Below, piece by piece: positions 3,086 to 49,868 of a stretch of DNA of 64,000 nucleotides. Every line of letters starts with the position of its first letter. The first letter of the stretch is position 1. Under the pieces are notes generated by a model. The model ran no database searches. It had not been told where the DNA came from and saw only the letters and a list, made by a program, of their open reading frames with translations. The DNA comes from an uncultured Gammaproteobacteria bacterium (GTDB lineage: Bacteria; Patescibacteriota; Patescibacteriia; UBA2196; GWA2-42-15). The stretch covers positions 2,535 through 66,534 of the forward strand of contig CAZNIO010000002.1 in the NCBI GenBank assembly GCA_964573135.1, given 5' to 3'. The translations under genes and the position numbers were made by a program.

Positions 3086-3094
3086 CATAAAAAT

Positions 3095-10899: not shown

Positions 10900-10902
10900 G
10901 TC

Positions 10903-11538
10903 TTACTCCGTCTGTTTGGTTAACGATTTTAAATATTTAATTACACCAGCTGAATTAATCACATCAGCATATCTTGTTTCTAAGTTGATCAAACTTTGCC
11001 GATGTGCATTTTTATCGCGATCAACAACTGCGTCCACAACCACAATTGGCCTATAACCATAAGATATAGCATCAACGGCAGTAGCTTTAACACAGCCACT
11101 GGTTGAGCAACCAATAATAATTAAAGTATCAACCTGTTTAAAATTTAACTGCGAAGCAAGATCAGTTCCAAAAAACGCCGAAGCATAATGCTTTTTAACT
11201 GTTTTATCCCAATCCTCTTTATTAATCCGTGAATCTATCTCAACTGCCGATGTTCCTTCCATTAGAGTATTTAACCCGCTTTGTTTTAAAAACCAAATAC
11301 CCGCTTCTGAGATATTCTTATAACAAGTGAGAGAAAAATAAATTGGAACATCTTTACTGCGGGCGGCCTGAATAACTCTGTTTATTATCTCAATTTCTCT
11401 ATTCATCACCATGCCCAATGGAGAATTTGTATTACTAAAAGCATTCATCATATCAACCACTATTACAGCTGGTCTTTCTCCAAAGCCCATTTTTTGACCG
11501 AACCCTCTTTTAATATAAATTTCTTTTACTTTCTTCAT
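10903..11538 (-). CDS. Isochorismatase-family cysteine hydrolase
   Basis: Conserved GCSTSGCV catalytic-Cys region and the family-typical fold pattern (VIVVDMMN..., DxK...). Confidence 0.8.
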   Translation of the reverse strand: MKKVKEIYIKRGFGQKMGFGERPAVIVVDMMNAFSNTNSPLGMVMNREIEIINRVIQAARSKDVPIYFSLTCYKNISEAGIWFLKQSGLNTLMEGTSAVEIDSRINKEDWDKTVKKHYASAFFGTDLASQLNFKQVDTLIIIGCSTSGCVKATAVDAISYGYRPIVVVDAVVDRDKNAHRQSLINLETRYADVINSAGVIKYLKSLTKQTE

Positions 11539-11541
11539 ACT

Positions 11542-35753: not shown

Positions 35754-36467
35754 ATGAATAAATATAAATTTAAAGATAATCTCACCGAAGGTATTATAAC
35801 CTCAAGGCCAAATCGTTTTATAATGCTGGTTAATTTTAATGGTAAAATTGAAGAAGCTCATTGTCCATCCACCGGCAAAATAGGAAACATAGAGTTTAAT
35901 AATATTCCATGCTTGGTCTCAAAAAGTAATAATAAAAATAGACGCACTAAATATACCGTGGAAGCCATCTCCTTGGATAATCCAAATAAAAAAGAAAAGT
36001 CATGGATTGGCATCAACCAAAATAGAATTAATGAATACGTAAAATTTTTTCTAAGGCAAGGAAGATTTAATAAAATTGTAGGTAACTTTAATCAGCTGAA
36101 AAGAGAAGTGAAATTAGCAAACTCCAGAATAGACTTCCTGCTGGATGATACATTCTTAGAGGTAAAAATGCCGCTCATAACCCTTGCTGGCCAGAACCCT
36201 CAAAAAAATAAATCAAAATTTAATTCCTTCGATCGTTTAATTAAACATTTTGAAGATTTATCTAAAAACACCAGGGCTATTGTTTTATTATGTTATTTAT
36301 ATAATGCCAAACCATTTGAGCCTCCTAAAACTGACAAAACAAACAAAAAAGTTAAATCAGCTGCTTCTAAAGCCATAAAGCAAGGGGTCGAAATGTGGCA
36401 AGCTAACTATTCAATAAATAAAAATAGTGTCTCTCTAGCCAAATATTTTAAACTGGATATTATATGA
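35754..36467 (+). CDS. sfsA: Sugar fermentation stimulation protein A homolog
   Basis: SRPNRFIMLV...AHCPSTGKIGNIEF...NSRIDFLL...FLEVKMP, matching conserved SfsA blocks. Confidence 0.75.
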   Translation: MNKYKFKDNLTEGIITSRPNRFIMLVNFNGKIEEAHCPSTGKIGNIEFNNIPCLVSKSNNKNRRTKYTVEAISLDNPNKKEKSWIGINQNRINEYVKFFLRQGRFNKIVGNFNQLKREVKLANSRIDFLLDDTFLEVKMPLITLAGQNPQKNKSKFNSFDRLIKHFEDLSKNTRAIVLLCYLYNAKPFEPPKTDKTNKKVKSAASKAIKQGVEMWQANYSINKNSVSLAKYFKLDII

Positions 36468-36973
36468 AAAAAATTATATTATACATTGCTCAAAGTTTAG
36501 ATGGGTATGTAGCTACCAAAGATGGTAGTGTTGCTTGGCTTGACGAATTTAATAAGGCAGATTATGGTTATGAAAAATTTATAAAAAATATTGATACTGC
36601 TGTTCAAGGAAACACAACATATGAACAATTCAAATATCTCTATCCTGGAAAGAAAAATTACGTGTTTTCTGAAAACGCTGGTACCCAGTCACAAAAAAAC
36701 GTTATTTTTGTAAAAGGAAACATAAAAAAATTTATAGACGGCCTAGACAAGAAAACACATAAAAATATCTGGCTAGTTGGCGGACCAAATTTATTATCTG
36801 GTTTTTTGAATGAAGGGCAAGTTGACGAGATGATTATCTTTACTATGCCCGTTTTATTAAAAGAAGGTATACCTCTGTTTAGTAATATTAAAAAAGCCCC
36901 CGCTCTTACATTAAAAAATATTAAAAAGCACGATAATGGTGTAGTTGTGCTTCACTATTTGATAAAAAAATAA
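36464..36973 (+). CDS. Dihydrofolate reductase-family protein (RibD C-terminal domain type)
   Basis: ILYIAQSLDGYVATKDGSVAWL...NIWLVGGPNLLSGFL...DEMIIFTMPVLLKEGIPLF. Confidence 0.7.
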   Translation: MKKIILYIAQSLDGYVATKDGSVAWLDEFNKADYGYEKFIKNIDTAVQGNTTYEQFKYLYPGKKNYVFSENAGTQSQKNVIFVKGNIKKFIDGLDKKTHKNIWLVGGPNLLSGFLNEGQVDEMIIFTMPVLLKEGIPLFSNIKKAPALTLKNIKKHDNGVVVLHYLIKK

Positions 36974-37145
36974 ATTTCAGATTAAAATAATCTTTGTATT
37001 CCCCCTAATCTTAACCATTAAATTCTCTTTTTCCACTTTATTCAACAATAAATTTATAATATAATTTCGGTTACGACCCCACAAAAAATATCCCCAAAAT
37101 TAGGGATATTTTTTATTTACCCCTAAAGGGAGTTGAACTTTAAAG

Positions 37146-37751
37146 ATGTTTTTTGCTATAATAAAATCTATGACATTTAAAGAAAAAGAATACAGCAATA
37201 AAAAATTTAATAACTTTGATTTTAAGAACCAAAATATAAAAAAAAAGTCTTTTTCTGATTGCCAATTTCAAAATTGTAATTTTACAGAAAGTAATTTTAA
37301 TAATAGTGAATTTTTTAATTGCAAATTCAAAAAATGCAATTTTAGCTTGGCTAAATTTTCAAATTTAAGTCTAAGGGATATAGAATTTGAAAACTGCAAA
37401 TTAGCTGGTATTAAATTTTATGAATGCCAAACAGAACTTCTTGAAATTAAGTTCAACAAATGCCTAATAATGTATTGTAATTTCCTTAACCTAGACTTGA
37501 GAAACACTCTCTTTGTTGAATGTGAAATCAAGGGAACTGATTTTATTGATAATAATCTAACTAAAGCTGATTTTTCAAAATCAATTTTTGATAAAAGTAT
37601 TTTTCATAATGCAAATCTTACTCACGCAAACTTTACTGGAGCAATAAATTACTGCATTAATCCAAAAGATAATATTTTAAAAAAAACAAAATTTTCTAAA
37701 CCAGAAGTTATTTCTTTGCTTCAAACATTGGATATTATTATCGAAGAATAA
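37146..37751 (+). CDS. Pentapeptide-repeat protein
   Basis: Tandem A(D/N)(L/F)xx-type pentapeptide repeats rich in N/F/C across ~200 aa. Confidence 0.8.
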   Translation: MFFAIIKSMTFKEKEYSNKKFNNFDFKNQNIKKKSFSDCQFQNCNFTESNFNNSEFFNCKFKKCNFSLAKFSNLSLRDIEFENCKLAGIKFYECQTELLEIKFNKCLIMYCNFLNLDLRNTLFVECEIKGTDFIDNNLTKADFSKSIFDKSIFHNANLTHANFTGAINYCINPKDNILKKTKFSKPEVISLLQTLDIIIEE

Positions 37752-38037
37752 AATAGTATGAAAGATCCATTCTCTTTACGCCAAGACATTTTTATTACTA
37801 TCCTAAATTTATAATAATTATAATCTATCTAATAAATTACGTGCCAATAAATCAGACTATGAATTGATCAGTAAAAAAATTATGGATGAATTAAATGGGT
37901 ACGAACTAATTGTGCACTCAAGTCTAATACAAAATGATAAAAGCTTGCCAACAGTCTCGATTAATCACCCAATCAAAAAATCTCTCAATAATTTCCGAGA
38001 GATTTTTTGTTTAACTAATTAAACTATCAAAATATTC

Positions 38038-38970
38038 TTATTCTTTATTAAGATGCTCAATAATACAATCAATAATTGCTCCGTTAAAATTCCAATAATC
38101 ATTACCCTCAGATTTTCGATGAGCTATCCCAGGCCTAGAATTTAACTCTAGCAACTTAAATCCTTTTTTGGTATTTATAAAATCAGCCCGAAATATAACA
38201 GGATAAAAACTAGAAACCTTATCTATAATTTTATTTAATATCTCTAATACTTCTTTTGGAATCTCCCCTAAAGGCAAAGAAATGCAACTACCGCCCAATT
38301 TTAGATTAGCTAAATACGACCCCTCTGCTGGCTGCCTAAGAAGTCCAGAGATTATCTTCTTGTTAACCACGATTACACTTATGTCATGCATCCCTTTAAC
38401 AATATTAGGAATGCCCATAGAAGAATCCATAAATTCCTGAATCAAAACATTAGTCCAATCATCATATAAATCTTGCTTTATCTCTTTTTTATCAATAACA
38501 AAAACCCCTCGCCCTTCTTCACCAAATCTTTCTTTCAATACAATCTTATCCCCCTTAATTTTCGCAAAAGAGTTAATAGCCTCTTGATATGAATTAACAA
38601 GTAATGTTTTAATCGCTATAGATGAAAATAATTCAAAAGTTTTCAATTTATCTCGACAGATCTCATCAAAATCTGGATGATTAATTATGGGGCAATCATT
38701 AATTTTTGGGATTGTGTTTAAATTATCTTTATTATAAATCAAGTCAACTTTGATCTTTTCATTTTTAGTAACAAATTTTTCTCCATTCCAAAATGAATAA
38801 TTTTTAAAAAGCCCATTACCTTGATAAGAATAACCTCTAACAACATAGGTATCTACACCCTTCTTTTTTAACTCCTCTATAATCTCTATATAACTTTAGT
38901 AATATTCCTTGTTGTCAAAAGGATAGTCCAGTATTCCAGAAGATGAAAAATAAACTGCTAATCTTTTCAT
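38038..38970 (-). pseudogene. RimK-like ATP-grasp ligase with an in-frame TAA at codon 25 (38896..38898). The track ORF 38038..38742 starts at an internal TTG.
   Basis: Upstream in-frame sequence MKRLAVYFSSSGILDYPFDNKEYY-TAA-SYIEIIEELKKKGVDTYVVRGYSYQGNG... forms the pre-ATP-grasp domain; the total of ~311 aa equals RimK length. ATP-grasp motifs ANLKLGGS and ELNSRPG are present. Confidence 0.55.
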
Positions 38971-38999
38971 ATATTTTTTAAATACTACCACTTTCTTTT

Positions 39000-40388
39000 T
39001 TAAAGTATTTTAATTTCAATAGCTTGTTCAGTGCGCCTAACGTCTGACAAAAGAGATGAACGACTTTTATTAAATAAAGTCAAATCAAACACACTCTTCC
39101 CTCCATTTTTGGCATACAAACATTTATCACCAACCTTTTTATGAATATCAATAGTTTCAAAAGATTTTAATTCTTGTATTTTTTTAATGCCTTTAATTTC
39201 AGTAATAACTCCTTCTTCTCTAGCAAAAAATTTCATAGTTTCTGCATAGCCTAAGCATTTCTTGGGGATAATTACCTTTTTAGGTATCCGAATTAAAATG
39301 TCATTTAATTGGTGGTCAATATTAAAGGTTAGCTTATACATCAAGTGTCTAAAGCCACCCATTCTTGGTCCTAGTTCAATTATTTTCCACCCTTCATTTG
39401 TTTTAATTAATTCAATGTGAACAGTGCTATTTCTCAAGCCCATTGCATAAACTGATTTTATAGCCACGCTCTCTGCCTCTTTAATAGCTTCTTTGGTTAA
39501 TGTCGTCGGAGTAATTGCCTTATAACTAAAAAAATCATCAAATCCGATTGAGTGCCCAGTAATAACATGTACTAATGGGCAAAAAGTTATTTCACCTTCA
39601 GCATTAACATAGGCATCAACTGAATACATATCGCCTTCAAAAAATTGCTCAATTAAAATTTCGGGGTCTGTTATTCTGTTGTTCTCTTTATATATTTTTT
39701 TAACTTTTTTGAATGTTTTCTTTAGCGTATCTTCAAGATCTTCCTCGTGAAAACAAATACTAACCAGCAAACTTTGCGCTAACCCAGCCGGCTTGATAAT
39801 TAACGGAAAACCAATATCTTCTTTAATCTGTTTTAGTATTTTTTTACCAGAATTTTTAGCAACTAGAAATTTAGGAGTAATTGTGGAATCGTATAATTTT
39901 AAATGCTGACGCATATCAATCTTATTGATAGACCATCTAAGAGATTCTGCCGTCGGAATTTTTAAATACGGAACATGTGGAATAATTTTTGCGAAGATAG
40001 GAATATTTGACTCTGGGCTTCTACTGGTGATGGCTATCAACTCCTCTTTATATGGCAACAATGCTTCTTCTATTTTTAATGAATTGGTAAAATTACATGG
40101 AATTGCGATATCAACACTTTCAAGTAACTCTTTATCTTGTTGTTTGGTCTTTTTAGAATCAAAAATAATGGCAAATCTAAATTTTTGATTTATCTCTTTG
40201 CCATATTTTTTCAGTGAGTCAATCGTCTGATACGTAACCTCAGGTTTTTCCGTATTAATAAATAAAATAATATTTTTATTTATTAATACATCATCACCAT
40301 CTTCGCCTAAAATATTTTTATCCAGCTTTTTAATTATATTTCTTGCTACTGAACTAGCAGAATTAACAATTTTTTTAGTTTTAATCAT
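39000..40388 (-). CDS. ATP-grasp domain ligase (L-amino-acid-ligase / carboxylate-amine ligase-like), 462 aa
   Basis: C-terminal ATP-grasp fold (FPLIIKPAGLAQS..., EQFFEGDMYSVDAYV, IELGPRMGG) with an N-terminal extension of ~180 aa. Confidence 0.65.
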   Translation of the reverse strand: MIKTKKIVNSASSVARNIIKKLDKNILGEDGDDVLINKNIILFINTEKPEVTYQTIDSLKKYGKEINQKFRFAIIFDSKKTKQQDKELLESVDIAIPCNFTNSLKIEEALLPYKEELIAITSRSPESNIPIFAKIIPHVPYLKIPTAESLRWSINKIDMRQHLKLYDSTITPKFLVAKNSGKKILKQIKEDIGFPLIIKPAGLAQSLLVSICFHEEDLEDTLKKTFKKVKKIYKENNRITDPEILIEQFFEGDMYSVDAYVNAEGEITFCPLVHVITGHSIGFDDFFSYKAITPTTLTKEAIKEAESVAIKSVYAMGLRNSTVHIELIKTNEGWKIIELGPRMGGFRHLMYKLTFNIDHQLNDILIRIPKKVIIPKKCLGYAETMKFFAREEGVITEIKGIKKIQELKSFETIDIHKKVGDKCLYAKNGGKSVFDLTLFNKSRSSLLSDVRRTEQAIEIKIL

Positions 40389-41094
40389 TTTATTTAGTCT
40401 TATTCTATAATAAAAAACTCAACCTCTATGCTGATGGTTGGTTCTTTGAGACACTTTGCGCCTTAATTAAAGACTTTTTAAGCTCTACCCTCTTCCCATT
40501 TTTTATTACTTTGGTCAACTTGCTAGAAATAGTCTCTTTTTTTACTTTTTTATAATTTTTAACCATAAAAAGTTATATATAAAGTGTATCATATCCGAGC
40601 AATAACTCAAGGACTTTAACATATATTTAAAAAAATCAAATTATTAAATTACACACCGATTTCATCGGCAGCTTTCTTGTTTGTTCATCTTTTTCTACCT
40701 TATTTGATAAAATATTTATAATAAAATTTCGCTTACCACCCCATTAAAAAACCAGCGCTAATGCGCTGATTTTTTAATGGGGTCTAATTAAACGGATATT
40801 GAATTATCTTTTATTCTTAAAAAAATATATTATGCTATATATAACAGAAGTTAAAAAATATATAGGAATTATTATTACTGTAATAATAAAAAAAACAGGT
40901 TCCTCTACTTTTAGTAGGCCACTTATTAAATTATGTAATAATATCGAAACAAAGCCAATCACAACAATTAACCATAACTTCTTCCAACTTAACAAAAATA
41001 TTTTTGTAGAGAGTAATGGTTTGCTCATAAGGAATGTATATTAATCAGATATTTGTAATAGGTACGTAAAGCTTTACCTGCTTAATTTATTCTA

Positions 41095-41298
41095 TCAAAT
41101 TGAAATAATAAACAAGATGACTGCAATAATTAAAAAAATAATGCCTAAAACTTTATTAGTAGATTTAGAATCTGAATGTTTGATATGCAGCTTTTTCAAA
41201 CAATAGACATGGAACTTCAATACTTTCTCTGGAAAAAGAATCAAAACCAAACCAGCCACCAGGAAAATAATTGAACGAATAAACATTTGAATGTCCAT
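41095..41298 (-). CDS. Hypothetical small membrane protein
   Basis: 67 aa with two TM helices. A similar 51-aa ORF lies at 41326..41481 (-). Confidence 0.3.
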   Translation of the reverse strand: MDIQMFIRSIIFLVAGLVLILFPEKVLKFHVYCLKKLHIKHSDSKSTNKVLGIIFLIIAVILFIISI

Positions 41299-41724
41299 AG
41301 TTTAAGTATATCAAAAAACCACTTTCTAATTTGATTTTCTGTTAAGCAACCCGATTATAATCATCACCAACCCACCAACAACCCAAATTGCTAGTTCAAT
41401 ACCAGTATGCAAGCTCAAACCAACAAAAACCCAAATAAGTCCCAAGATGATATGGATTTGATAAGGAAATTTTCTTTTCATATTTTTAATTTAATTAATT
41501 ATTAATTAATTTAATTATACCAAAAAACCACCTTAGTTGAAAGATGGGTTTGAAAGTCTATATTATTAAAGATTTGGTATATTTTATCCACACGAAAAAT
41601 GTTTTTTAAAAGTCATTTCTATTGTTTTATTTGAAGTATCTAAAAGGTAACACACTATTCACTTTAGCTTACCACCCCACTAAAAATCATTCCTATCAGA
41701 ATGATTTTTTGATATAATAAAATT

Positions 41725-41991
41725 ATGATAAAAAATATAATCAATTGGATATTTAGCATAGTTTTTCTTACAATCGGCGTATTGAATATATTTTTGGTAC
41801 ATCCTGTTCCGGGAATTTTTTACCTTCTTCTTTCTTTAGTTTACTTGCCTCCAATAAGCACTATTATCAAAAAAAGATTCGACTTCTCAATTCCTTACAT
41901 AGTTAAAATCATCTTGGGTCTTGTTATTCTTTGGGGAACGTTAGCCGTGGGTGAACTTATGGAAATATTTGAAGCCTGGTTGGGGCATTAA
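41725..41991 (+). CDS. Hypothetical membrane protein
   Basis: 88 aa with three predicted TM helices. Confidence 0.35.
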   Translation: MIKNIINWIFSIVFLTIGVLNIFLVHPVPGIFYLLLSLVYLPPISTIIKKRFDFSIPYIVKIILGLVILWGTLAVGELMEIFEAWLGH

Positions 41992-42131
41992 CCCTACTTT
42001 ATTTAATAATCAATTTATAACTAAATTTCTGTTGTGGCCCCACAAAAACGGAAATATTTTTTTGAAAATAAAAGCACACTATGATAAAATTAACCTAATA
42101 AGACAAAAAAATATTAACTATAAATATATCT

Positions 42132-43484
42132 ATGAATACAACAACAAAAATCCTAGCTTATTGCCTCCTTCTTATCTTCCTGGTATTGCCCTTCACCGTA
42201 AATTCCGAGGGTAGTAGTGATTTAATAATTAGCAATCTAAGTTATACAAATCTTCCCCCTGCGGGTGACGACCCTTACGCATATTTCAATATAACTATTA
42301 AGAATCAAGGTACACAAACAGCCAAATTAACCGGTGGAATATTAGAAGAGCATATTTTTTGTTTAACTATATATAATTCAACAGACGGGGAAACATACAC
42401 TGAAGTGGGCGGAAGTTGCCGAGGAAAAGATGAATTATTAAATCCACAAGCGGAAACCGAATTTAGTAATGTATTTACTTATCGAAAATCGAATTGGACA
42501 AATGCTAAAAAAGTTAAAATAACTCTGGACGATTCCGCCAATGTTGTTCATGAGAGTAATGAGTGTAACAACAGCATGATTCTTGATATTGCCAGCGGGC
42601 AAAAAACATCAGGTTGGGATAAGGATACATATTGCCAGCAAGACCCAATCCCTCCTGCTGATACTACACCTCCCACTATAAACAACGTCAGTATTGTCCA
42701 GGTTAGTGAAACTCAAATCGGAATCAGCTGGACAACAAACGAAGATACTGTTTTTCTAGTTGACTTTGGAAATTCGGCAGGAGACTATCATTTATTCGGA
42801 GGAGGCAATAATAAAAACTATAAAAAAACTCACAGCTACTCTCGAGATACCCTGGAGACGGATAAAAAATATCATTTTCAAATTACTGCCATCGATTCAT
42901 CTAGTAATACCACTCGAAGTAGTGATTTTAGTTTTACTCTTTCAAAAAACCAGGAGCCACCTGTAATCGTACCGACAACGATAAGTAATAAACCAAGCAA
43001 TATGGCCAAACGATTATCCGGCAGACTGCTTTTAAGCGTAGAGGATAACGGAAAAGTGTGGTATGTAGATGATAATAAATATCAAAGGCATAATATAACT
43101 TGGGATAACGCCTTAGCACTCTTTGAAAATTTTGCCTTAGGTATTACCGACGAAAATTTATTAAAAATTCCAGCTGCCGTGGATAGCATTAAACCTGATT
43201 TGGATACAGATGAAGATGGCTACACAGACAGATCAGAATTAACTCATGGCTTTAGCCCATATACACCTGGAGCATATCAAGGTAAATTTTCAATAGATAC
43301 TAATTTAGCCAATAGGCTAAAAGGCAAACTACTTCTTCAGGTTAATCAAAAAGGAGCAATTTGGTATGTTGACCAAGATGGAAAAAGACATAGCGTTAGA
43401 TGGGATAATTTAATGGATTTATTTAGAAAATTAGCTTTGGGTATTAATAATAATGACTTAGAAGAAATCGAAAAAAGTGAATGA
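42132..43484 (+). CDS. Secreted protein with an FN3-like domain, a Ca-binding D-x-D-x-D-G motif and two tandem ~58-aa C-terminal repeats
   Basis: Signal peptide. TTPPTINNVSIVQVSETQIGISWTT (FN3-like), DLDTDEDGYTDRSELTHGFSPYTPG, and the repeats RLSGRLLLSVEDNGKVWYVDD...WDNALALFENFALGI / RLKGKLLLQVNQKGAIWYVDQ...WDNLMDLFRKLALGI. Confidence 0.55.
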   Translation: MNTTTKILAYCLLLIFLVLPFTVNSEGSSDLIISNLSYTNLPPAGDDPYAYFNITIKNQGTQTAKLTGGILEEHIFCLTIYNSTDGETYTEVGGSCRGKDELLNPQAETEFSNVFTYRKSNWTNAKKVKITLDDSANVVHESNECNNSMILDIASGQKTSGWDKDTYCQQDPIPPADTTPPTINNVSIVQVSETQIGISWTTNEDTVFLVDFGNSAGDYHLFGGGNNKNYKKTHSYSRDTLETDKKYHFQITAIDSSSNTTRSSDFSFTLSKNQEPPVIVPTTISNKPSNMAKRLSGRLLLSVEDNGKVWYVDDNKYQRHNITWDNALALFENFALGITDENLLKIPAAVDSIKPDLDTDEDGYTDRSELTHGFSPYTPGAYQGKFSIDTNLANRLKGKLLLQVNQKGAIWYVDQDGKRHSVRWDNLMDLFRKLALGINNNDLEEIEKSE

Positions 43485-43532
43485 ATATTAACTCCTTCTT
43501 CTACCAAATATCCCCAATTATAATTCCTTCAA

Positions 43533-43570
43533 GCAAAAACGAAGTTTAAATCCTCGTTTTTGCTAATTTT
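43533..43570 (+). terminator. Rho-independent terminator after the secreted-protein gene
   Basis: GCAAAAACGAAG-TTTAAATC-CTCGTTTTTGC followed by a T-rich tail. Confidence 0.5.
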
Positions 43571-43581
43571 TACAATAAAAA

Positions 43582-43656
43582 TGTATAAGGTTGACAAAAT
43601 TTTGTATAAGGTTTACAATAAAAATGTATAAGGTTCAGCCGAATTTGTATAAGGTT
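43582..43656 (+). promoter_or_regulatory. Four direct repeats of TGTATAAGGTT at ~21-22-nt spacing (43582, 43603, 43625, 43646), overlapping a TTGACA-N17-TACAAT promoter and the RBS of the HTH-GHKL gene
   Basis: Read directly. The larger unit TACAATAAAAATGTATAAGGTT occurs twice. The -35 is at 43591..43596 and the -10 at 43614..43619. Confidence 0.55.
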
Positions 43657-43657
43657 T

Positions 43658-44392
43658 ATGGATATCAACTTAATTACAATTAAAAAAGCATCTGAAATAC
43701 TTGGTGTTTCAACTCAAACCTTACGTCGCTGGGATGAGAGTGGTCGCCTAGTTTCGGTTCGTGGAAAAAATAATTATCGTTATTATAAAAAAGAAGATAT
43801 CAATGAATATATAAAAAATAATTTAAAAGATATATTCAAAATGGCAAAAAATTGGACTTTGAACAAAGAAGGAACTGAACCACAATCTGATTTTTATTGC
43901 AAAGATATTTATATTTTTAAAGCTAGAGCAGATAAACTAGAAAGGGAATTAAATAAAACAAAAGCAACAAAAGAAATGTATGCTTTAGTTGGCAGCATTG
44001 TCGGCGAGATTGGTAATAATTCTTTTGATCACAACCTAGGCAATTGGCCAGATATCAGAGGAATATTTTTTGCTTATGATTTAACCAAGAGAATAGTTAT
44101 TTTGGCAGACAGAGGCCAGGGCATCTTGGCCACATTAAAAAAAGTTAAACCAGAATTAAATAATCATTTAGACGCCCTGAAAACTGCTTTTACTGAAATT
44201 ATTTCTGGTCGTGCGCCAGAAGCTCGCGGCAATGGCTTAAAATTTGTAAAAAAAATGGTAATGACATATAATTTAAATTTATTTTTTCAAACCGGCGACG
44301 CAATACTTAATATTTATAAAAAAAATAAAAAATTAGAAATTAAACAATCTACTGTTAATTTTCACGGTTGTTTAGCTTTAATCCAATATTAA
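43658..44392 (+). CDS. Fusion protein: MerR/excisionase-type HTH + GHKL (histidine-kinase-like, anti-sigma-factor-type) ATPase domain
   Basis: N-terminus IKKASEILGVSTQTLRRWDESGRL (MerR-type HTH). C-terminus EIGNNSFDHN...ILADRGQGI (G1 box)...GRAPEARGNGLKFV (G2 box). Confidence 0.6.
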   Translation: MDINLITIKKASEILGVSTQTLRRWDESGRLVSVRGKNNYRYYKKEDINEYIKNNLKDIFKMAKNWTLNKEGTEPQSDFYCKDIYIFKARADKLERELNKTKATKEMYALVGSIVGEIGNNSFDHNLGNWPDIRGIFFAYDLTKRIVILADRGQGILATLKKVKPELNNHLDALKTAFTEIISGRAPEARGNGLKFVKKMVMTYNLNLFFQTGDAILNIYKKNKKLEIKQSTVNFHGCLALIQY

Positions 44393-44393
44393 T

Positions 44394-44687
44394 ATGACTA
44401 TTTTATTTAAAAAATTTGGTACAACTTTAACTGGACGGCAATTTGGCAAAGAAGCTTTTGCTGCTTTTTTGCCTTCTTTAAAAGATGTGGGCAGTGACGA
44501 GAAAATAGAAGTGGATTTTGAGGGCGTTAATGTATTTACACCATCTTGGGGAGATGAATTTTTAAGTCTGCTGTTAGAAAAATTTGGCAATAGGGTATTT
44601 TTAAAAAATACACAAAACCCTTCTGTCAAAACAACTATCGAACTATTAGAAGAAATCCATAAAATCAAATTTAACGTGGAAAGTTAA
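44394..44687 (+). CDS. STAS-like (DUF4325-type) protein, putative partner of the GHKL ATPase
   Basis: 97 aa, LTGRQFGKEAFAAFLPSL...EKIEVDFEGVNVFTPSWGDEFLSLLLEKFG, matching the DUF4325 pattern (sR..g..l...l......v.lDF.gV...s.SF.de). It starts 1 nt after the upstream stop. Confidence 0.5.
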   Translation: MTILFKKFGTTLTGRQFGKEAFAAFLPSLKDVGSDEKIEVDFEGVNVFTPSWGDEFLSLLLEKFGNRVFLKNTQNPSVKTTIELLEEIHKIKFNVES

Positions 44688-44777
44688 TGCTTTTTTGACA
44701 TACAAAATAATATCGAAGCATCAAAAAAATCTCCCAAATATTTTGGGAAATTTTTTCTTTAGGTTAATTAAATAAAA

Positions 44778-45509
44778 CTAAGGACAATTAGTGGCTTTAC
44801 GGAACCCTGCGTCTTCAGCCTCTTTCTCTGTACAAAAATACTTTTCACCTTTGCGAATGTCTATTTTTACTCTATCATAATTATCACAACCAGGCACTAA
44901 ATATGTCATGCCAAAACCTTTTTCTGAAATATTCCCTTTTATAATACACTGCGGATCACTTGGCCCTAAGTCCTTTTCTTGCTTTGATGTATCAATTCTC
45001 TCTTCATAATCACACTCGCCCCATAATCCCCTCTCCTTTCTCCTCGCTTCTTCCTGAGCAGATGACAATAATGCTCGATAATATTTATCTGGTGGAATAG
45101 CCGTCGCTATAGCATAACCTTGTCGCACCAAATAGTCGTTAACTAAAACATTATCCCCGTCTTCAACCAACAAAACCGCATAGCGCAACCAACGATCATA
45201 TCTGTCCTTGTCGGTAATATCTTTTTCTAGTTTAACTTTTCTTTTATCAATTAAATCCGTTAGCGCAATCCTTGCTTCGTTATAATAACATTCACCTTTT
45301 TCTGGGCTATCAATACCCATTAGCCTAATCCTAATATTATCGTCTATTCTAAAAGTGTCTCCATCAATAACGCTCTTTACTAAATATATTTCCGTGCCTC
45401 CCAATTTATCAGAAAAAATCTTGGGAGCTAAAATCCGCCCACCCGCCAAAAGACCCAACAAAAAAAGTATAGCCCCTAAAATAAAACTATGTTTTTTATT
45501 ATAAGTCAT
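44778..45509 (-). CDS. Secreted thermonuclease (SNase-like) with a Cys-containing C-terminal extension
   Basis: Signal/TM N-terminus and SNase motifs DGDTFRID...IRLMGIDSPE...RYDRWLRYA. Confidence 0.8.
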   Translation of the reverse strand: MTYNKKHSFILGAILFLLGLLAGGRILAPKIFSDKLGGTEIYLVKSVIDGDTFRIDDNIRIRLMGIDSPEKGECYYNEARIALTDLIDKRKVKLEKDITDKDRYDRWLRYAVLLVEDGDNVLVNDYLVRQGYAIATAIPPDKYYRALLSSAQEEARRKERGLWGECDYEERIDTSKQEKDLGPSDPQCIIKGNISEKGFGMTYLVPGCDNYDRVKIDIRKGEKYFCTEKEAEDAGFRKATNCP

Positions 45510-45520
45510 AAAAACTACCC

Positions 45521-47203
45521 TTAATTATTAATATCAAATAAAAACATTCTCCCTATCCTTATCTCATCATAGGAAAAATCACTTGAAAGAATTTCTTTAA
45601 CTGGTGCTAGCTTTGTATCACCACTTTTTTTAAAAGCTCGACTTATTTCCTCTAAACGACTTGTCTCTGGAATTAAATATTCCAAATCAACATCAACTCC
45701 CCTAGCTATCATTTTCTCCAAATGAGATAATACAGTCCCCTGCGTCATTCCACGTATCTCAGCAATTTCCGCGATTGAAAGTTTTTGATCAACCAACTTC
45801 TTCGTTCTTTCCTGCGAAGAAACTTTCTTCTCTCTCCTTTTTCTTTTTTCTCCTTTTTCTTCTTCTGAAGGTAAAATTGAATTTAAAAATCCTCTTTGTC
45901 TGGCTTCTTTTTCTTTAATATCTAAATTTTGAATTTCCAAGGTATTATTTTCTGATATCCCAATAAATATTTTATCTAACTTTAATATATCTTCATTCAC
46001 TCGTAGCGCCAAATTATTTAAACCCATCAATCGCAAACCACTGATTGATCTCACTCGTGAAAGACCCACATAACCCATACCCTCTACAAATGATTTTGAA
46101 AGATCAATTTCTGCCCCATCTAAAGTCATCCCCTGACTCTTATGCACGGTAATCGCCCATGCCAACCGTAAAGGAATCTGTACTATTTCAGCTTTTATCT
46201 TCCCCTCTTCCTCAATCACCCAACTTTCAGGCATCGCTGTAATTTCATCACCCAAAAAAGTTTTAACAACCGGCATGCCATATTCATCAAAACCAATTAT
46301 CCTTCCCAAAGTCCCATTCACGTACCCCTCATCAAAATTATTTTTGACAAACATAACCATCGCTCCCTTTTTTAATATTAATTCCTCTGGTGCCAAGCAA
46401 TTCTTAGCCAAAATTTCTCCAAGCTTGCTAGCACCATGAACCTTCATGGCATATTTTTTTATTTCACCCGGCACCTTGCTCAACTCTCTATGATTTACCA
46501 TATCCACATCTACATTATGCGTAAACAGTTTAGTCGGTGTTATCTGGCCCTCAATGTCCCTCTTGTAACTGCCCCTTAATAACTCCAGGGTATGTTCGCC
46601 CGTGTCATTTGTGCGTATGTCATTCAAAACACTGGCTAAGGCATCATCACCGGTCTGCCTATACTGCTCACTTAGATAACACACCTTCAAATCCATTTCG
46701 TCCCAAATTTGAGATTTGTGAACAAATTCTGCCTTTCCCTCACCCTTACTAATTGGAGGTAATTGAAAAAAATCACCACACAATACTATTTGCATTCCTC
46801 CAAACGGGCGCATGTCCTGCCGAATCATTTTACAAACATAATCAACCATATCTAATCGATATGAATGCAACATAGAAATCTCATCTATAATCAACACCTT
46901 AGTTCGCGACAAGCGACTCCTGAGTCGCCCATTTTTTTGAAGCTTCCTTAAATCACTTTCTTGTAATTCATCTTTTATACCTATGCCTGCCCAAGAATGA
47001 ATGGTAATACCATTCATATGCGTAGCCGCAATACCAGTTGAAGCCGTTACTCCCACGGCCACTCCTTTTTCTTTTAAAAAACTAATATATCTATTCAACA
47101 AAAAAGTCTTCCCGCTTCCAGGAGACCCCGTCAAAAATACGTTCTTTCCCAATTTTAATATATCCAGTGCTTCTTGTTGTTTCATATTTATATAATATAG
47201 CAT
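45521..47203 (-). CDS. PIF1-family (RecD-like) helicase with C-terminal HTH domain
   Basis: Walker A GSPGSGKTF, motif II LIIDEISM, the Pif1 signature LCGDFFQLPPI, and the C-terminal HTH KLSIAEIAEIRGMTQGTVLSHLEKM. Confidence 0.8.
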   Translation of the reverse strand: MLYYINMKQQEALDILKLGKNVFLTGSPGSGKTFLLNRYISFLKEKGVAVGVTASTGIAATHMNGITIHSWAGIGIKDELQESDLRKLQKNGRLRSRLSRTKVLIIDEISMLHSYRLDMVDYVCKMIRQDMRPFGGMQIVLCGDFFQLPPISKGEGKAEFVHKSQIWDEMDLKVCYLSEQYRQTGDDALASVLNDIRTNDTGEHTLELLRGSYKRDIEGQITPTKLFTHNVDVDMVNHRELSKVPGEIKKYAMKVHGASKLGEILAKNCLAPEELILKKGAMVMFVKNNFDEGYVNGTLGRIIGFDEYGMPVVKTFLGDEITAMPESWVIEEEGKIKAEIVQIPLRLAWAITVHKSQGMTLDGAEIDLSKSFVEGMGYVGLSRVRSISGLRLMGLNNLALRVNEDILKLDKIFIGISENNTLEIQNLDIKEKEARQRGFLNSILPSEEEKGEKRKRREKKVSSQERTKKLVDQKLSIAEIAEIRGMTQGTVLSHLEKMIARGVDVDLEYLIPETSRLEEISRAFKKSGDTKLAPVKEILSSDFSYDEIRIGRMFLFDINN

Positions 47204-47269: not shown

Positions 47270-48727
47270 TTATCTATCAATATATTCTTTATACTGCGAA
47301 CTATTCTGCCAAGCCATCCAACTAATAGTTGGATGTACGGTCTTACCGCCAAATCTCATGGCTTGAGTAATGGCCACTCCAGGATATTTACCATAAATAT
47401 ATGCATTAGTTAAAATCGTCCAGTTAGAATCACTTACTCTAGTATAACCAATTTGTCTATGAATAAAAGCTTTTAACTCATTTATTTTCTGTTCCTCATA
47501 GGCACCCGATAATTTAGGCCTAAGATACCTTTCAGGTTTTAATCTACTTTCTAAAGTACTCCCGGGTATTAAGGGATCATAACCATATTTCATTTCATTA
47601 CCATCTCCATAAGAATCCCCATCGCTGTCAAACAAAAAAGGATCTGTACCAATTTCTAATTCATAATTATCTGATAACCCATCCTGATCATGATCAAAAA
47701 AATCAGCCACAGTATCTTTTCGTTCTTCAACTTGGGGGCCATAAGGCTCAGCTGAAGATGTAGTAAAAGTCATTTCATTAGTTATCTTACCTTTATTATA
47801 TAAACCCCCAAACGCCTCTATCTTGTAATAATATGTTTTATTAGATTCAATGTCAGTTAAAGTTATCTGATGATCTAAACTTCTCTTCTCAATATTAACA
47901 TCAATCCGCTTGTCATATTTACCCTGAGTAGTACCTAAGTGCAATCTGCTCTTGGCAGCTAAATTTGTTTTCCATTTTATAGTTGCGGAATTATTAGTCA
48001 CATAACCGGGATCAGAGGCCACTGGCCGAATATCATAAATTTGTAGTTCAATATTTCCCTTAATAATACCACCCGTTCTAAACTCTAAAAATGATATTTT
48101 TTTATTCCCTCCTTGATCTTCTGCAATAATTTTTACATAATATTTAGAATATGGATAAAGTTTGTATAAAAACATTTCATGGTATTTATGAAAGGCTTTA
48201 TAACTAGCTCTACCACCCAAGCTATCCTTGTAATACCCATACTGTACTGCTGCCCTAGTTAACTCATTTGTTTCCCAACTAATCACAGCTGCATCTCGGG
48301 TCGTCTGCAATACCCTCTGCCCGACAAACTCTGGATAAACAGTATCCTTCATGCCACCAGTAGAAAAAACTTGAACAAAAGACTCCGTCTTTTGCTGAAA
48401 TTTATTATACGCCACTATTTTATAATAATAAGTAGTATCCTTTTGTAATTCATACAAAAGAACCTCATGTGAAAAATCATAAGCTCCATAACCCGCAGTT
48501 CTTGTTAAATCCTCAGCTATTTCTCCAAAATAGATAAAGGCCTTTGTTGGCTCCTGTGCTGTATACCACTTAAGCTTAGCTGTACCATTTTTAACGTCTG
48601 TCACCTCAAAACGGCTAAAGTAAGTACTTTGAGAAAAAACCGGCATGCCAGCAAATATCAATACAAAAACAATTGCTGACAACAACAATTTTTTCATTAA
48701 ATTATGAGAGTATTTAAGCTTTATCAT
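47270..48727 (-). CDS. Secreted protein with three FN3-like domains and thrombospondin-type-3-like Ca-binding repeats
   Basis: Signal peptide, repeated FN3-like blocks (ISWETNEL..., IKWKTNLAAKS...YYYKI), and DHDQDGLSDNYELEIGTDPFLFDSDGDSYGDGNE. Confidence 0.55.
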   Translation of the reverse strand: MIKLKYSHNLMKKLLLSAIVFVLIFAGMPVFSQSTYFSRFEVTDVKNGTAKLKWYTAQEPTKAFIYFGEIAEDLTRTAGYGAYDFSHEVLLYELQKDTTYYYKIVAYNKFQQKTESFVQVFSTGGMKDTVYPEFVGQRVLQTTRDAAVISWETNELTRAAVQYGYYKDSLGGRASYKAFHKYHEMFLYKLYPYSKYYVKIIAEDQGGNKKISFLEFRTGGIIKGNIELQIYDIRPVASDPGYVTNNSATIKWKTNLAAKSRLHLGTTQGKYDKRIDVNIEKRSLDHQITLTDIESNKTYYYKIEAFGGLYNKGKITNEMTFTTSSAEPYGPQVEERKDTVADFFDHDQDGLSDNYELEIGTDPFLFDSDGDSYGDGNEMKYGYDPLIPGSTLESRLKPERYLRPKLSGAYEEQKINELKAFIHRQIGYTRVSDSNWTILTNAYIYGKYPGVAITQAMRFGGKTVHPTISWMAWQNSSQYKEYIDR

Positions 48728-48827: not shown

Positions 48828-49868
48828 ATGTCTATCAATCACATTTTTAAAGCTGGTGTTGAAAAAGACGCCTCAGATATTCATTTAGTCGTCAACCGAC
48901 CACCCGTTATTAGAATCAATGGTGAACTCGTTGAACTAAAGGACTCCCCACTCACCAAATCTAAACTCGAAACACTGGTTCTCTCAATCCTAAGTGCGCC
49001 ACAAAAAGAAGAATATATTAAAAAAAGAGAATTAGATCTGGCCTATGAAATAGAAGGCTCCGGGCGCTTCAGAGTTAATCTCCATTTTGAAAAAGGCATG
49101 CCCAGCTTAGTCGCAAGAATTATTAAAGACGAAATACCAACCATGGAAGGCATTGAAATGCCAGAAATTGTCTACTCATTGGCTCGTCTCCATCAAGGCC
49201 TAATTCTTCTCACTGGTCCCACTGGATGTGGCAAATCAACCTCTCTTGCTGCCATGGTTGATCTGGTCAACAAAGAAAGAACTTGTAATATTGTAACTTT
49301 GGAAGATCCAATTGAATTCACATTTAAACCAAATAAAAGTATTGTCCGCCAAAGACAATACGGTTCTGATTTTCTTTCTTTCCCAGAAGCTTTAAAGCAC
49401 GTCGTTCGTCAAGACCCAAACGTGATTATGGTTGGCGAAATGAGAGACTTGGAAACCATCGGTGCCACATTAACACTGGCTGAAACAGGTCACCTGGTCT
49501 TAGCCACCCTTCACACTTCAAACGCATCACAAACCATAGACAGAATTATAGATATTTTTCCACCACATCAACAAGAACAAATAAGAATGCAATTATCCAT
49601 GTCGCTTGCCGGGGTCATATCCCAACAACTGATACCAACACCAGGCAACACCAGTCGTATAGCGTCTAGAGAAATAATGATCAATACCCCAGCTGTAGCC
49701 AACCTGATACGTAAAAATAAAATATCTCAAATTAAAACCATTATCCAAACCTCAGCTGACGACGGCATGACGTCCATGGATCAATCCTTAAAAATCATGG
49801 CTGAAAAAGGATTAATAGAAAAAGAGGTAGCACAAGCATACGCCGTTGATCCAAGCATGATAAAATAA
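48828..49868 (+). CDS. pilT: Type IV pilus retraction ATPase PilT
   Basis: GLILLTGPTGCGKSTSLAAMVD (Walker A), TLEDPIEF, the Asp box, the His box TLHTSNASQTIDRII, and the C-terminal AIRNLIRE-like ANLIRKNKISQI. Confidence 0.85.
   Translation: MSINHIFKAGVEKDASDIHLVVNRPPVIRINGELVELKDSPLTKSKLETLVLSILSAPQKEEYIKKRELDLAYEIEGSGRFRVNLHFEKGMPSLVARIIKDEIPTMEGIEMPEIVYSLARLHQGLILLTGPTGCGKSTSLAAMVDLVNKERTCNIVTLEDPIEFTFKPNKSIVRQRQYGSDFLSFPEALKHVVRQDPNVIMVGEMRDLETIGATLTLAETGHLVLATLHTSNASQTIDRIIDIFPPHQQEQIRMQLSMSLAGVISQQLIPTPGNTSRIASREIMINTPAVANLIRKNKISQIKTIIQTSADDGMTSMDQSLKIMAEKGLIEKEVAQAYAVDPSMIK

Follow-up and report, generated by a model that had tools for sequence, protein, structure and literature searches.

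The locus described here lies in a 64-kb stretch of DNA, which as a whole is called the window. It consists of two genes on the forward strand, A and B (Table 1). Their reading frames are those claimed in an earlier note on this DNA, with a gap of 1 nt: B starts 1 nt past the stop codon of A, and tight co-transcription of the two, also claimed there, is supported. The promoter in front of A had been read as TTGACA-N17-TACAAT, and this is indeed what stands at 43591-43619. It matches 11 of the 12 consensus positions; many of the homologous loci have TTGACA-N17-TATAAT and thus match all 12. Judged by its sequence, the inverted repeat upstream of the promoter is probably the terminator of the preceding gene (42132-43484), by which the A-B operon would be isolated. 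No RNA family was found when 43300-44900 was searched with Rfam.

Table 1. Genes and sequence features of the A-B locus (positions within the window)
Feature	Position	Strand	Remarks
Inverted repeat, then T-run (aattttt)	43532..43564	+	arms 16 nt, 88% complementary
Operator repeat 1 (TGTATAAGGTT)	43582..43592	+	2-nt overlap with -35; offset -9 from -35 start
-35 hexamer TTGACA	43591..43596	+	
Operator repeat 2	43603..43613	+	within 17-nt promoter spacer; offset +12
-10 hexamer TACAAT	43614..43619	+	
Operator repeat 3	43625..43635	+	around predicted transcription start; offset +34
Operator repeat 4	43646..43656	+	5' UTR, ends 1 nt short of ATG; offset +55
Gene A	43658..44392	+	244-aa protein: wHTH, helical segment, GHKL-like domain
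MerR/BldC-like winged HTH, A residues 5-55	43670..43822	+	Pfam MerR, Foldseek; recognition helix 19-28
Gln20 codon, predicted specificity residue	43715..43717	+	co-varies with operator position 3
Conserved helical segment, A residues 57-104	43826..43969	+	W66, Y80-C81, F87 conserved
Divergent GHKL (Bergerat-fold) nucleotide-binding domain (supported), A residues 105-244	43970..44389	+	
N-box E117-x3-N121-x3-H125	44006..44032	+	invariant; SpoIIAB 1til_A has the same pattern
G1 box D151-R-G153-Q-G155	44108..44122	+	D, G, G invariant
G2 box / ATP-lid end R190-G-N-G-L-K195	44225..44242	+	
Gene B	44394..44687	+	97-aa single-domain STAS protein (DUF4325)
Pro50-Ser51-Trp52 codons	44541..44549	+	caps helix alpha2 at its N-terminus; phospho-acceptor candidate
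Hairpin + T-run, intrinsic-terminator-like	44732..44758	+	3' of B, in the gap towards the convergent thermonuclease gene

The promoter is interspersed with direct repeats. The four copies of TGTATAAGGTT start where the earlier note had placed them, with spacings of 21, 22 and 21 bp. They are the only exact copies in the window; if one mismatch is allowed, the window yields 7 matches, with 2.3 expected. They are instances of a motif shared throughout the family, TG[T/C]ATA[G/A], and, given the homologous loci, their occurrence is far beyond chance. Within the 140 bp that precede A, 80 loci together contain this motif at 166 sites on the coding strand, as opposed to 1.9 expected, and at 15 sites on the opposite strand. 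The spacing modes across the 80 loci are 21, 20 and 10 bp. The offsets from the start of the -35 hexamer are fixed at -9, +12, +34 and +55 in homologous loci. The exact operator dyad also precedes A-B pairs in which A is 66-69% identical to that of the window, and in close relatives the last repeat likewise abuts the ATG. It is a mere speculation that AAGG in the fourth repeat doubles as a weak ribosome-binding site. In one locus (L032), an orphan second B gene is equipped with an operator dyad of its own.

Outside the promoters of A and B, operator sites were almost absent from the approximately 810 kb of sequence that were scanned. A metagenome scan for the exact operator dyad, aimed at a regulon, retrieved 31 stretches, 10 of them being A promoters. 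Most of the others were unrelated 21-23-bp satellites in GC-rich contigs. A promoter of A-type appearance, in L100, was set aside: it drives only a 37-codon remnant on a non-CPR contig. The repeats had been introduced as iterons, which is a misnomer. Since they track gene A in all lineages and co-vary with its HTH, replication iterons are rejected; the repeats are operator sites that, by all signs, are read by this HTH.

The N-terminal domain of A is a MerR-type HTH, as had been proposed. It scores 47.9 bits with Pfam MerR (cut-off 28.2, E 1e-12) and 40.8 bits with MerR_1 (cut-off 21.6). Its best structural match in Foldseek is BldC (6ama_Y, TM 0.82, rmsd 2.2). With the NCBIfam model HTH_BldC it reaches 20.2 bits, far under the cut-off of 77, and it is not a small stand-alone protein; it is fused to a C-terminal part of 190 aa. 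The two Pfam matches could be taken to mean that A is a classical ligand-responsive activator of the MerR type, with the C-terminal domain for effector binding. MerR-target promoters typically have spacers of 19-20 nt. The spacer found here, however, has the optimal length of 17 nt, and the operator is built from direct repeats rather than as a palindrome. Nor does the model of A contain the long coiled-coil dimerisation helix, but short helices only, and the HTH is structurally nearest to BldC. A classical MerR activator is, therefore, extremely improbable.

How A finds its operator can be deduced from covariation. Residue 20 of A pairs with position 3 of the operator: Gln, Met or Thr go with T, Asp goes with C. 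The two agree in 60 of 61 taxa. Their mutual information amounts to 0.90 bits, that of the next column to 0.45, and each of them underwent about 11 Fitch changes on a tree that was built without the HTH. Of course, shared ancestry could have inflated the covariation in part. Such agreement, with about 11 independent switches, implies that A reads its own promoter. As a result of comparative sequence analysis, it can be considered as shown that A binds the direct repeats there via its BldC/MerR-like winged HTH and that residue 20 of the recognition helix reads operator position 3. The autoregulation postulated in the earlier note is thereby corroborated, by the family-wide operator motif as well as by the covariation. 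The latter also provides a testable recognition code of one residue and one base, Gln20 with T and Asp20 with C.

The HTH is followed by a segment of two helices (59-68 and 84-100 in the model), which contains no beta-alpha STAS unit and is kept in HTH-less relatives of A. The remainder of the protein had been assigned to the GHKL ATPases of the RsbW/SpoIIAB type, and the strings ILADRGQGI and GNGLKFV are present in A. Fold and motifs support a GHKL domain; the top fold matches are GyrB/Hsp90 ATPases, not SpoIIAB or Ser kinases. In 31 diverse members of the A family, E117, N121, H125, D151, G153, G155, G191, G193 and L194 are invariant; within the G2 box this also applies to R190 and K195, while N192 is conserved to at least 90%. 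These motifs align in register with those of SpoIIAB (1til_A).

Sequence searches respond poorly to this domain. In A itself, GHKL stays below significance in Pfam, NCBIfam and PDB sequence searches, and with A, A1 and A3 as queries, sequence and profile searches of the PDB yielded the HTH or noise only. Relatives of A and the family consensus produce sub-threshold matches to HATPase_c_2 or HATPase_c (12-20 bits, cut-offs 26-27, best E 5e-4). Of the profiles by which the earlier note could be checked, MerR and DUF4325 exceed their cut-offs, whereas HATPase_c_2 appears below threshold only, in relatives and the family consensus. Comparison of the A family profile with a single SpoIIAB sequence by hhalign is weak (E 0.04, probability 1.3%). 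One relative of A, P0197, bears the JGI name 'anti-sigma regulatory factor' (anti-sigma Ser/Thr kinase). The structure model of A has a pLDDT of 79. For the GHKL part, Foldseek against the PDB found GyrB, Hsp90 or TRAP1 in 36 of the 36 top matches, with E values of 3e-4 to 2e-3 and probabilities of mostly 0.9-1.0. Fold search, invariant motifs and sub-threshold profile matches together support a very divergent GHKL domain.

The top matches, the GyrB 24-kDa and Hsp90/TRAP1 N-domains, suggest yet another function. The domain could be an ATP-driven dimerising ATPase or clamp, as in GyrB, MutL, Hsp90 or MORC; ATP would then dimerise A on the phased repeats, with B as a cofactor that is not phosphorylated or as a modulator of nucleotide exchange. 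The invariant Glu117, which occupies the position of the GHKL catalytic base, fits this possibility, as does the fact that the HATPase_c_2 threshold is not reached. The N-box pattern of GyrB, MutL and Hsp90, however, is E-x3-N-x2-D, while that of A is SpoIIAB-like, E-x3-N-x3-H. Further, the GHKL domain of A comprises merely about 140 aa and is devoid of a transducer domain. Finally, A has an obligate partner from DUF4325, the characterised member of which, VapS, is a kinase substrate, and the Ser of this partner is invariant at the VapS-equivalent position. We consider a clamp unlikely and prefer to see in A a putative kinase of B.

The assignment of B as a STAS-like DUF4325 protein proved correct. 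B scores 30.4 bits with Pfam DUF4325 (PF14213), the family consensus 36 bits, the cut-off being 23, and precomputed annotation assigns PF14213 to nearly all B homologues. In the AF2 model (pLDDT 95), Ser51 lies at the beginning of a helix that extends from residue 50 to 67. By fold, B comes closest to RsbS, stressosome subunits and anti-sigma antagonists (TM 0.57-0.66). Pro50 and Ser51 are invariant, even in distant partners. VapS (PDB 9z7o) is a strong member of DUF4325 with 61.6 bits, and its S48, a validated phospho-site (PMC13373217), is one alignment column apart from Ser51 of B. By analogy to SpoIIAA, CapS and VapS, where the site also caps helix alpha2, Ser51 is likely the phospho-site of B. 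The uncharacterised DUF4325 proteins of the CPR thereby gain a concrete predicted role and a predicted phospho-site. As to VapK, a search of a plasmid collection revealed just a fragmentary DUF4325 gene in Leptotrichia.

The two genes belong together. In 81 of 83 related loci B lies directly 3' of A, mostly with gaps of -7 to +30 nt, which confirms the co-location that the earlier note had presumed. The HTH-less relatives behave alike: an overlapping downstream gene of 84-97 aa is present in 5 of the 5 examined, four of these being called DUF4325 and the fifth, without a call, aligning with B. HTH-less relatives of A and B reside within sugar-nucleotide and glycosyltransferase clusters. The A-B pair is found in at least 521 species-level genomes of many CPR lineages, with one copy of A per locus and an identity of 47-66% across CPR phyla. 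Its neighbours are not conserved. Any one family accounts for at most 3 of 139 neighbours, and most neighbours are housekeeping genes; the gene 3' of B, a convergent thermonuclease in the window, varies in other loci. The pair had been placed in an accessory region next to the thermonuclease and a PIF1 helicase. As the neighbours are unconserved, a functional tie to either gene is rejected, and the context is incidental; nor is a conserved defence or accessory context supported.

A toxin-antitoxin-like or defence module nevertheless deserves consideration, i.e., VapKSC without VapC, or something similar to HipBA. In this reading, toxicity or the sensing of damage would reside in the kinase domain, B would act as antitoxin or as a decoy substrate, and nothing but the autoregulation typical of such systems would be left to the HTH. 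The operon indeed has two tightly coupled, autorepressed genes, a near-consensus promoter and variable genomic contexts. An orphan copy of B exists, and MNT/HEPN (in L020), HicB (in L120), AbiEii and Fic are occasional neighbours. Also, CapKS and VapKSC, the characterised systems nearest to it, are tied to immunity. Yet the similarity to type II toxin-antitoxin systems is confined to the operon logic, that is two genes and autorepression. An accompanying effector gene is missing; the PADLOC models gave no match to B or to the GHKL part of A, and a scan of 2.9 million viral contigs detected no relatives of the module. The single A copy per locus, its conservation across phyla and the mostly housekeeping neighbours, with the low recurrence given above, do not fit either. 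Such a module is distinctly unlikely.

The combination of GHKL motifs and a STAS partner also conforms to the logic of SpoIIAB/SpoIIAA, and the JGI name of P0197 points in the same direction. A might accordingly be a DNA-tethered anti-sigma factor, the GHKL domain of which sequesters sigma; B would be the anti-anti-sigma factor that releases it, and the HTH would localise the exchange at promoters. Against this view, there is no sigma-factor gene among the conserved neighbours, for the simple reason that no neighbours are conserved, and the related CapK and VapK target STAS substrates, not sigma factors. We rate an anti-sigma function as very unlikely.

What we favour, with a chance a little better than even, is that A and B form an autoregulated kinase-STAS module of the partner-switching type, which is conserved across the CPR/Patescibacteria. 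According to the comparative analysis, A binds the 10-11-bp direct repeats with the core TG[T/C]ATA[G/A], phased by about 21 or 10.5 bp. The repeats bracket the -35 hexamer and the spacer, as well as the start site and 5' UTR, of a near-consensus promoter of the sigma70 type, which means that bound A should keep RNA polymerase off and thereby repress the operon. In analogy to BldC, the repeats are probably occupied by several A protomers in head-to-tail order along one face of the DNA; direct repeats in one orientation are compatible with such oligomerisation. The GHKL domain, presumably of the SpoIIAB/RsbW/CapK/VapK kind, would bind the co-translated B and phosphorylate it at Ser51, which caps helix alpha2. 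As long as B is not phosphorylated, its docking to this domain may alter the oligomerisation of A on the repeats. The expression of the operon would thus be set by the ratio of B to phospho-B, which in turn may depend on ATP/ADP or on a ligand sensed by the helical segment 57-104. Both the kinase activity of A and the gating of its DNA binding by the STAS protein, the central idea of the earlier note, are inferences.

The HTH-less relatives teach that the primary output of the pair need not be transcriptional. Since the ancestral pair of GHKL and DUF4325 proteins works without an HTH, a third protein that is not encoded next to the pair may be its true output; the HTH added in the CPR would then exert feedback control of dosage. 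A more ambitious version sees in A-B a 'one-component partner switch': the kinase itself would be the promoter-bound repressor, its occupancy would be set by STAS phosphorylation, and the module, vertically inherited across the CPR, would be a general regulator of energy or stress state in these minimal genomes, with further targets. This is a tentative proposal with odds well short of even.

The genomes of the CPR/Patescibacteria are very small, and hardly any of their regulators have been characterised. With its presence in so many species-level genomes and its strong conservation, A-B is a candidate for a main signalling device of these organisms. It would extend the newly described pairs of GHKL kinase and STAS substrate, CapKS and VapKSC, beyond phage defence and would represent a new wiring of such pairs, in which the DNA-binding domain is borne by the kinase.

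Among more distant systems, SypE-SypA of Vibrio fischeri, as far as the partial description at hand goes, is similar in combining a Ser kinase with a STAS-only protein in polysaccharide control. This is reminiscent of the HTH-less relatives of A and B in their sugar-nucleotide and glycosyltransferase clusters; the CPR version differs in being without such a genomic context. With SpoIIAB-SpoIIAA and RsbW-RsbV the module shares a small GHKL domain with E-x3-N-x3-H, DxGxG and GxG and a partner that consists of a single STAS domain, in which a Ser caps helix alpha2. In contrast to these systems, A-B is not linked to a gene for a sigma factor or a PP2C phosphatase. A motif-level search of the window, which is a weak test, found no PP2C-type phosphatase motif. 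Also, A bears a DNA-binding domain, and its sequence similarity to SpoIIAB and RsbW stays under all curated thresholds. BldC of Streptomyces resembles the HTH of A in that its wHTH is MerR-like but lacks the MerR coiled coil, and in its direct-repeat targets, which it binds with protomers arranged head-to-tail (PMC5859096). BldC, however, is a stand-alone protein of 68 residues that uses contiguous 9-bp repeats, whereas A is fused to GHKL and its sites of 10-11 bp are phased by about 21 or 10.5 bp.

Of the known systems, CapK/CapS and VapKSC, both described by Chambers et al., EMBO J 2026 (PMC13373217), come closest to A-B. B and VapS are both Pfam DUF4325 proteins with the conserved Ser of B at most one residue from VapS S48, and in both systems the GHKL gene is located immediately 5' of the STAS gene. 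Unlike VapKSC, A-B has no PIN toxin gene and lies outside defence islands. VapS has a C-terminal inhibitory tail, while B ends with the STAS fold; VapK, by its description, has a STAS domain and no HTH, A has an HTH and no STAS domain.

In CapK-CapS, too, the first gene encodes a GHKL kinase-like protein that begins with an HTH, and a STAS-domain gene follows directly. The Ser on helix alpha2 of the STAS domain is absolutely conserved, and the operon is autoregulated. The architectures differ. CapK, according to its description, is composed of HTH, STAS and GHKL, whereas in A two helices stand between HTH and GHKL. CapKS senses ssDNA via the internal STAS domain of CapK, which A lacks, and sits upstream of immune operons, while the CPR module has no conserved neighbour. 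CapS carries a DNA-binding wHTH and binds palindromes; B is a bare STAS protein of 97 aa. In the CPR module it is the putative kinase that carries the DNA-reading domain, and the sites are direct repeats. The HTH of CapK has no assigned function, whereas that of A, as judged from covariation, reads the operator. If the 'one-component partner switch' were true, it would explain what the HTH of CapK-type kinases is good for.

The genes of A, a MerR/BldC-like winged helix-turn-helix (wHTH) joined to a GHKL-like domain, and of B, a STAS protein (DUF4325), are laid out as first described from the sequence: the tight gene arrangement, the promoter and its four direct repeats are all present (see the table). 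Because hairpins flank the two genes, A-B is a discrete bicistronic unit. A scan of the whole 64-kb window revealed no further exact copy of TGTATAAGGTT, and Rfam had no family match for the A-B region. The operator region itself is a 43-bp tandem duplication (43557-43642, 77% identity) with TTACAATAAAAA and two repeats as the unit, which suggests that the four-site operator was derived from a two-site one by duplication.

Features of the A-B operon in the window and conserved motifs of protein A
Feature	Position	Strand or placement	Remarks
ORF A	43658-44392	+	244 aa
ORF B	44394-44687	+ (strand shared with A)	97 aa; 1 nt between A and B
Operator repeat TGTATAAGGTT, four exact copies	43582, 43603, 43625, 43646	upstream of A	spacing 21, 22, 21 bp
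Promoter TTGACA-N17-TACAAT	43591-43619		interleaved with the four repeats
Hairpin + T-run	43532-43564		ends the gene upstream of A
Terminator-like hairpin	44732-44748	3' of B
N-box of A	E117-x3-N121-x3-H125		invariant (31 C-terminal domains)
G1 box of A	D151-x-G153-x-G155		invariant (31 C-terminal domains)
G2 box of A	G191-x-G193-L194		invariant (31 C-terminal domains), preceded by invariant R190

The database holds 5,644 relatives of A, nearly all of about 245 aa and annotated as 'MerR family' only. At least 521 species-representative genomes encode A, every one of them from the Patescibacteria (CPR): Parcubacteria groups, Microgenomates, Peregrinibacteria, Gracilibacteria, Kerfeldbacteria and others. 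Homologous pairs are indeed co-located in other genomes. B lies immediately 3' of A in 81 of 83 loci, mostly at a distance of −7 to +30 nt; of the two unpaired loci, L013 stops at a contig edge and L026 has a partial A match only.

Related 10-11-mer direct repeats, e.g., TTGTATAGAT and TTGCATAGTT, precede A in other species. Counted on the coding strand in the 140 bp upstream of A, the core TG[T/C]ATA[G/A] is found 166 times in 80 loci, versus 1.9 expected and 15 on the opposite strand. Preferred spacings are 21 bp (36 cases), 20 bp (13) and 10 bp (13). A perfect TTGACA-N17-TATAAT promoter is seen at many A loci, and the offsets of the repeats from the −35 start (−9, +12, +34, +55/56) are fixed across loci, the window included. 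The repeats cover the −35 edge, the spacer, the start site and the 5' UTR, positions compatible with repression by occlusion. That A works as a classical MerR activator is hardly conceivable: the direct repeats and the absent coiled coil contradict it, and the 17-nt promoter spacer disfavours MerR-style activation. A metagenome-wide scan found the exact dyad directly upstream of A-B pairs with an A 66-69% identical to that of the window, and at two more A promoters at contig ends.

The base at operator position 3 varies together with residue 20 of A, which lies in the recognition helix. At TGTATA promoters this residue is Gln in 24 of 29 cases (Met 4, Thr 1), at TGCATA promoters Asp in 31 of 32; the mutual information is 0.90 bits, that of the next-best column 0.45. 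Chemically, Asp with C and Gln with a T:A pair make sensible partners. In a neighbour-joining tree for which only residues 60-244 of A were used, each trait changed about 11 times, and both agree in 60 of 61 taxa, locus L020 being the sole exception. Site positions 7-9 co-vary best with residues 19, 38-40 and 9 (wHTH and wing), which is more confounded by phylogeny. Binding of A to the repeats via its HTH is as firmly established as comparative data allow, and comparative evidence likewise upholds the autoregulation proposed in the earlier note, i.e., control of the A-B operon by A at its own promoter. BldC, the MerR-like wHTH regulator of Streptomyces, aligns head-to-tail on direct repeats (PMC5859096).

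Operator-like sequences also turn up elsewhere. Some 5 kb downstream of its A-B pair, L032 carries a second B paralogue, an orphan (12045-12382), which has an operator dyad of its own and a TTGAC −35; Cys-rich zinc-ribbon proteins that are paralogous to one another and measure about 580 aa (e.g., 10274-12037) flank this region. In L020 (709-1887), an operator-like dyad stands before an MNT-like nucleotidyltransferase (894-1481) and a HEPN gene (1465-1887), inserted directly upstream of A. Four operator-like copies in L106 (4070-4132; GCATAGTTT, GCATAGGGT and twice GTATAAGGT; spacing 21, 10, 21 bp), a contig of GC 0.31, have on one side an RtcB gene with an intein (2647-3966) and on the other a gene for 65 aa, both on the minus strand; a coding-strand gene downstream is absent, and the copies may be what is left of a promoter, or else a divergent target. 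The non-CPR contig L100 (1850-2500, minus; GC 0.41) presents AAGGTTGACA, two exact TGTATAAGGTT, GGAGG and ATG in that order, the same architecture as the promoter of A; it drives a 37-codon remnant only, and a second copy of some of the promoter segment follows about 500 bp further downstream. Metagenome contigs of GC ~0.5 (L084, L094, L110, L111) contain a 21-bp tandem satellite, GGTGTATAAGGTTCCAATTTC, which shares the 11-mer by chance and was discarded as unrelated to the module.

The MerR-family HTH of A was readily recovered: residues 5-55 match Pfam MerR, HTH_17 and MerR_1 above cut-off. Residues 60-244 have no match in Pfam, NCBIfam, PADLOC or PDB sequence searches, and the GHKL-like domain belongs to no curated family. 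A was modelled with AlphaFold2 from 48 homologues (pLDDT 79, pTM 0.69) and compared with the PDB by Foldseek. The HTH resembles BldC (6ama_Y, TM 0.82); the linker (57-104) forms two helices and no STAS domain. Ranks 1-36 are GHKL ATPases, GyrB 24-kDa and Hsp90/TRAP1 N-domains (E 3e-4 to 2e-3, probability mostly 0.9-1.0). When 31 diverse C-terminal domains are aligned, the residues that never vary are exactly the Bergerat-fold expectation, and SpoIIAB (PDB 1til_A) shares the E-x3-N-x3-H, DxGxG and GxG pattern. hhalign puts the three boxes and the lid segment of the A profile in register with SpoIIAB, with weak statistics (E 0.04). One relative is named 'anti-sigma regulatory factor (Ser/Thr protein kinase)' by JGI. 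That this domain is GHKL, though highly divergent and closest in kind to SpoIIAB/RsbW, is well supported by fold and motifs. Of the RsbW/SpoIIAB-type ATPase claimed earlier the motifs stand, whereas Foldseek puts GyrB/Hsp90 on top; HATPase_c_2 and HATPase_c match relatives and the family consensus below threshold only.

The GyrB/Hsp90 fold matches could also mean that A is an ATPase clamp and not a kinase, which is unlikely in view of its SpoIIAB-type N-box, its minimal domain and a DUF4325 partner with an invariant Ser; that A is a DNA-tethered anti-sigma factor we consider very improbable. The STAS identity of B held: it matches Pfam DUF4325 ('STAS-like') with 30.4 bits (family consensus 36 bits; cut-off 23). 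AlphaFold2 models B with very high confidence (pLDDT 95), and the closest PDB folds are RsbS, stressosome subunits and anti-sigma-factor antagonists (TM 0.57-0.66). Pro50-Ser51-Trp52 is invariant in 77 CPR sequences, Pro-Ser invariantly so in distant partners of HTH-less kinases. In the model Ser51 opens helix alpha2 (50-67).

GHKL-like proteins without HTH exist (~190-200 aa). An overlapping downstream gene of 84-97 aa follows in all five contexts examined; four partners are called DUF4325, and the fifth has no recorded Pfam match, yet aligns with B and retains Pro-Ser. Since HTH-less GHKL genes have a B-like partner, GHKL and DUF4325 appear to be the ancestral couple, to which the HTH would have been added in the CPR lineage. 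Two HTH-less pairs (L118:4001-4866, L122:4001-4851) are co-directional in sugar-nucleotide/glycosyltransferase clusters (Bac_transf, Glycos_transf_1, NTP_transferase, Polysacc_synt_2, SIS_2), and in one relative, P0157, the same GHKL-like domain is joined to a cytidylyltransferase. Such settings hint at a role in regulating envelope glycan synthesis and recall SypE/SypA.

The accessory context once assigned to A-B, next to a thermonuclease and a PIF1 helicase, was abandoned: neighbours vary between loci, and because they are not conserved, the two genes are incidental. Of 385 neighbours, at most 4 fall into one cluster of related genes, and among 139 immediate neighbours a given Pfam family is seen three times at most. 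Many of these are housekeeping genes (Mur ligase, DnaK, Ddl, Fmt, YchF, MreB); defence/TA-like genes are a small minority. The module was not found in 2.9 million viral contigs. Operon logic and kinship with CapKS and VapKSC might suggest a TA or defence module, which is quite unlikely given the absent effector, the lack of PADLOC or viral matches, the housekeeping neighbours and the strong conservation.

In the window, the membrane-anchored thermonuclease (SNase) and the PIF1-like helicase occupy 44778-47203 (minus strand); their adjacency to A-B is confined to this genome and its closest relatives (L001-L003). The former matches PADLOC model C3a212 'SNc+LTD' (E 6e-19); the latter has a C-terminal HTH_40 domain and matches several candidate-defence helicase models. 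Two large secreted-looking proteins (42132-43484, 47270-48727) with weak sub-threshold fn3, CARDB and TSP3-type repeat matches flank the region; a PilT-like ATPase gene (48828-49868) follows the second. The stretch 36000-42000 (GC 0.28-0.31 vs 0.35-0.39 in the flanks) may be an accessory segment; it contains two ATP-grasp-like ORFs (38038-38742, 39000-40388, both minus) and several small membrane-protein ORFs at 40.8-42 kb.

How the pair may work is suggested by the closest characterised systems (PMC13373217). The GHKL domain of A would bind ATP and B and phosphorylate Ser51, and the balance of B and phospho-B would feed back onto DNA binding by A. Candidate inputs are the ATP/ADP ratio and a ligand of the conserved helical segment of A (W66, Y80-C81, F87). 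As HTH-less pairs exist, a third protein may be the primary output; the HTH of A would then give dosage feedback.

We found no account of the A-B module in the literature searched, where DUF4325 is named in just three papers and there only in passing; the CapK paper mentions neither MerR nor DUF4325 nor Patescibacteria (PMC13373217). There, CapK (HTH-STAS-GHKL) phosphorylates CapS (STAS-wHTH) at Ser54 of helix alpha2, which takes CapS off the DNA, and VapK phosphorylates VapS at Ser48, which releases the VapC toxin; in both kinases the internal STAS domain contributes to a groove in which ssDNA is sensed (PMC13373217). A, unlike CapK and VapK as published, has no such domain. VapS (PDB 9z7o) is a strong DUF4325 member (61.6 bits) and matches the B profile with E 5.5e-4, its phospho-Ser one column off Ser51; VapS and B thus have a common family and a near-coincident Ser. 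The parts of the module, a GHKL kinase-like domain, a STAS substrate and a BldC-like HTH, are known. Their wiring and CPR-wide distribution are new.
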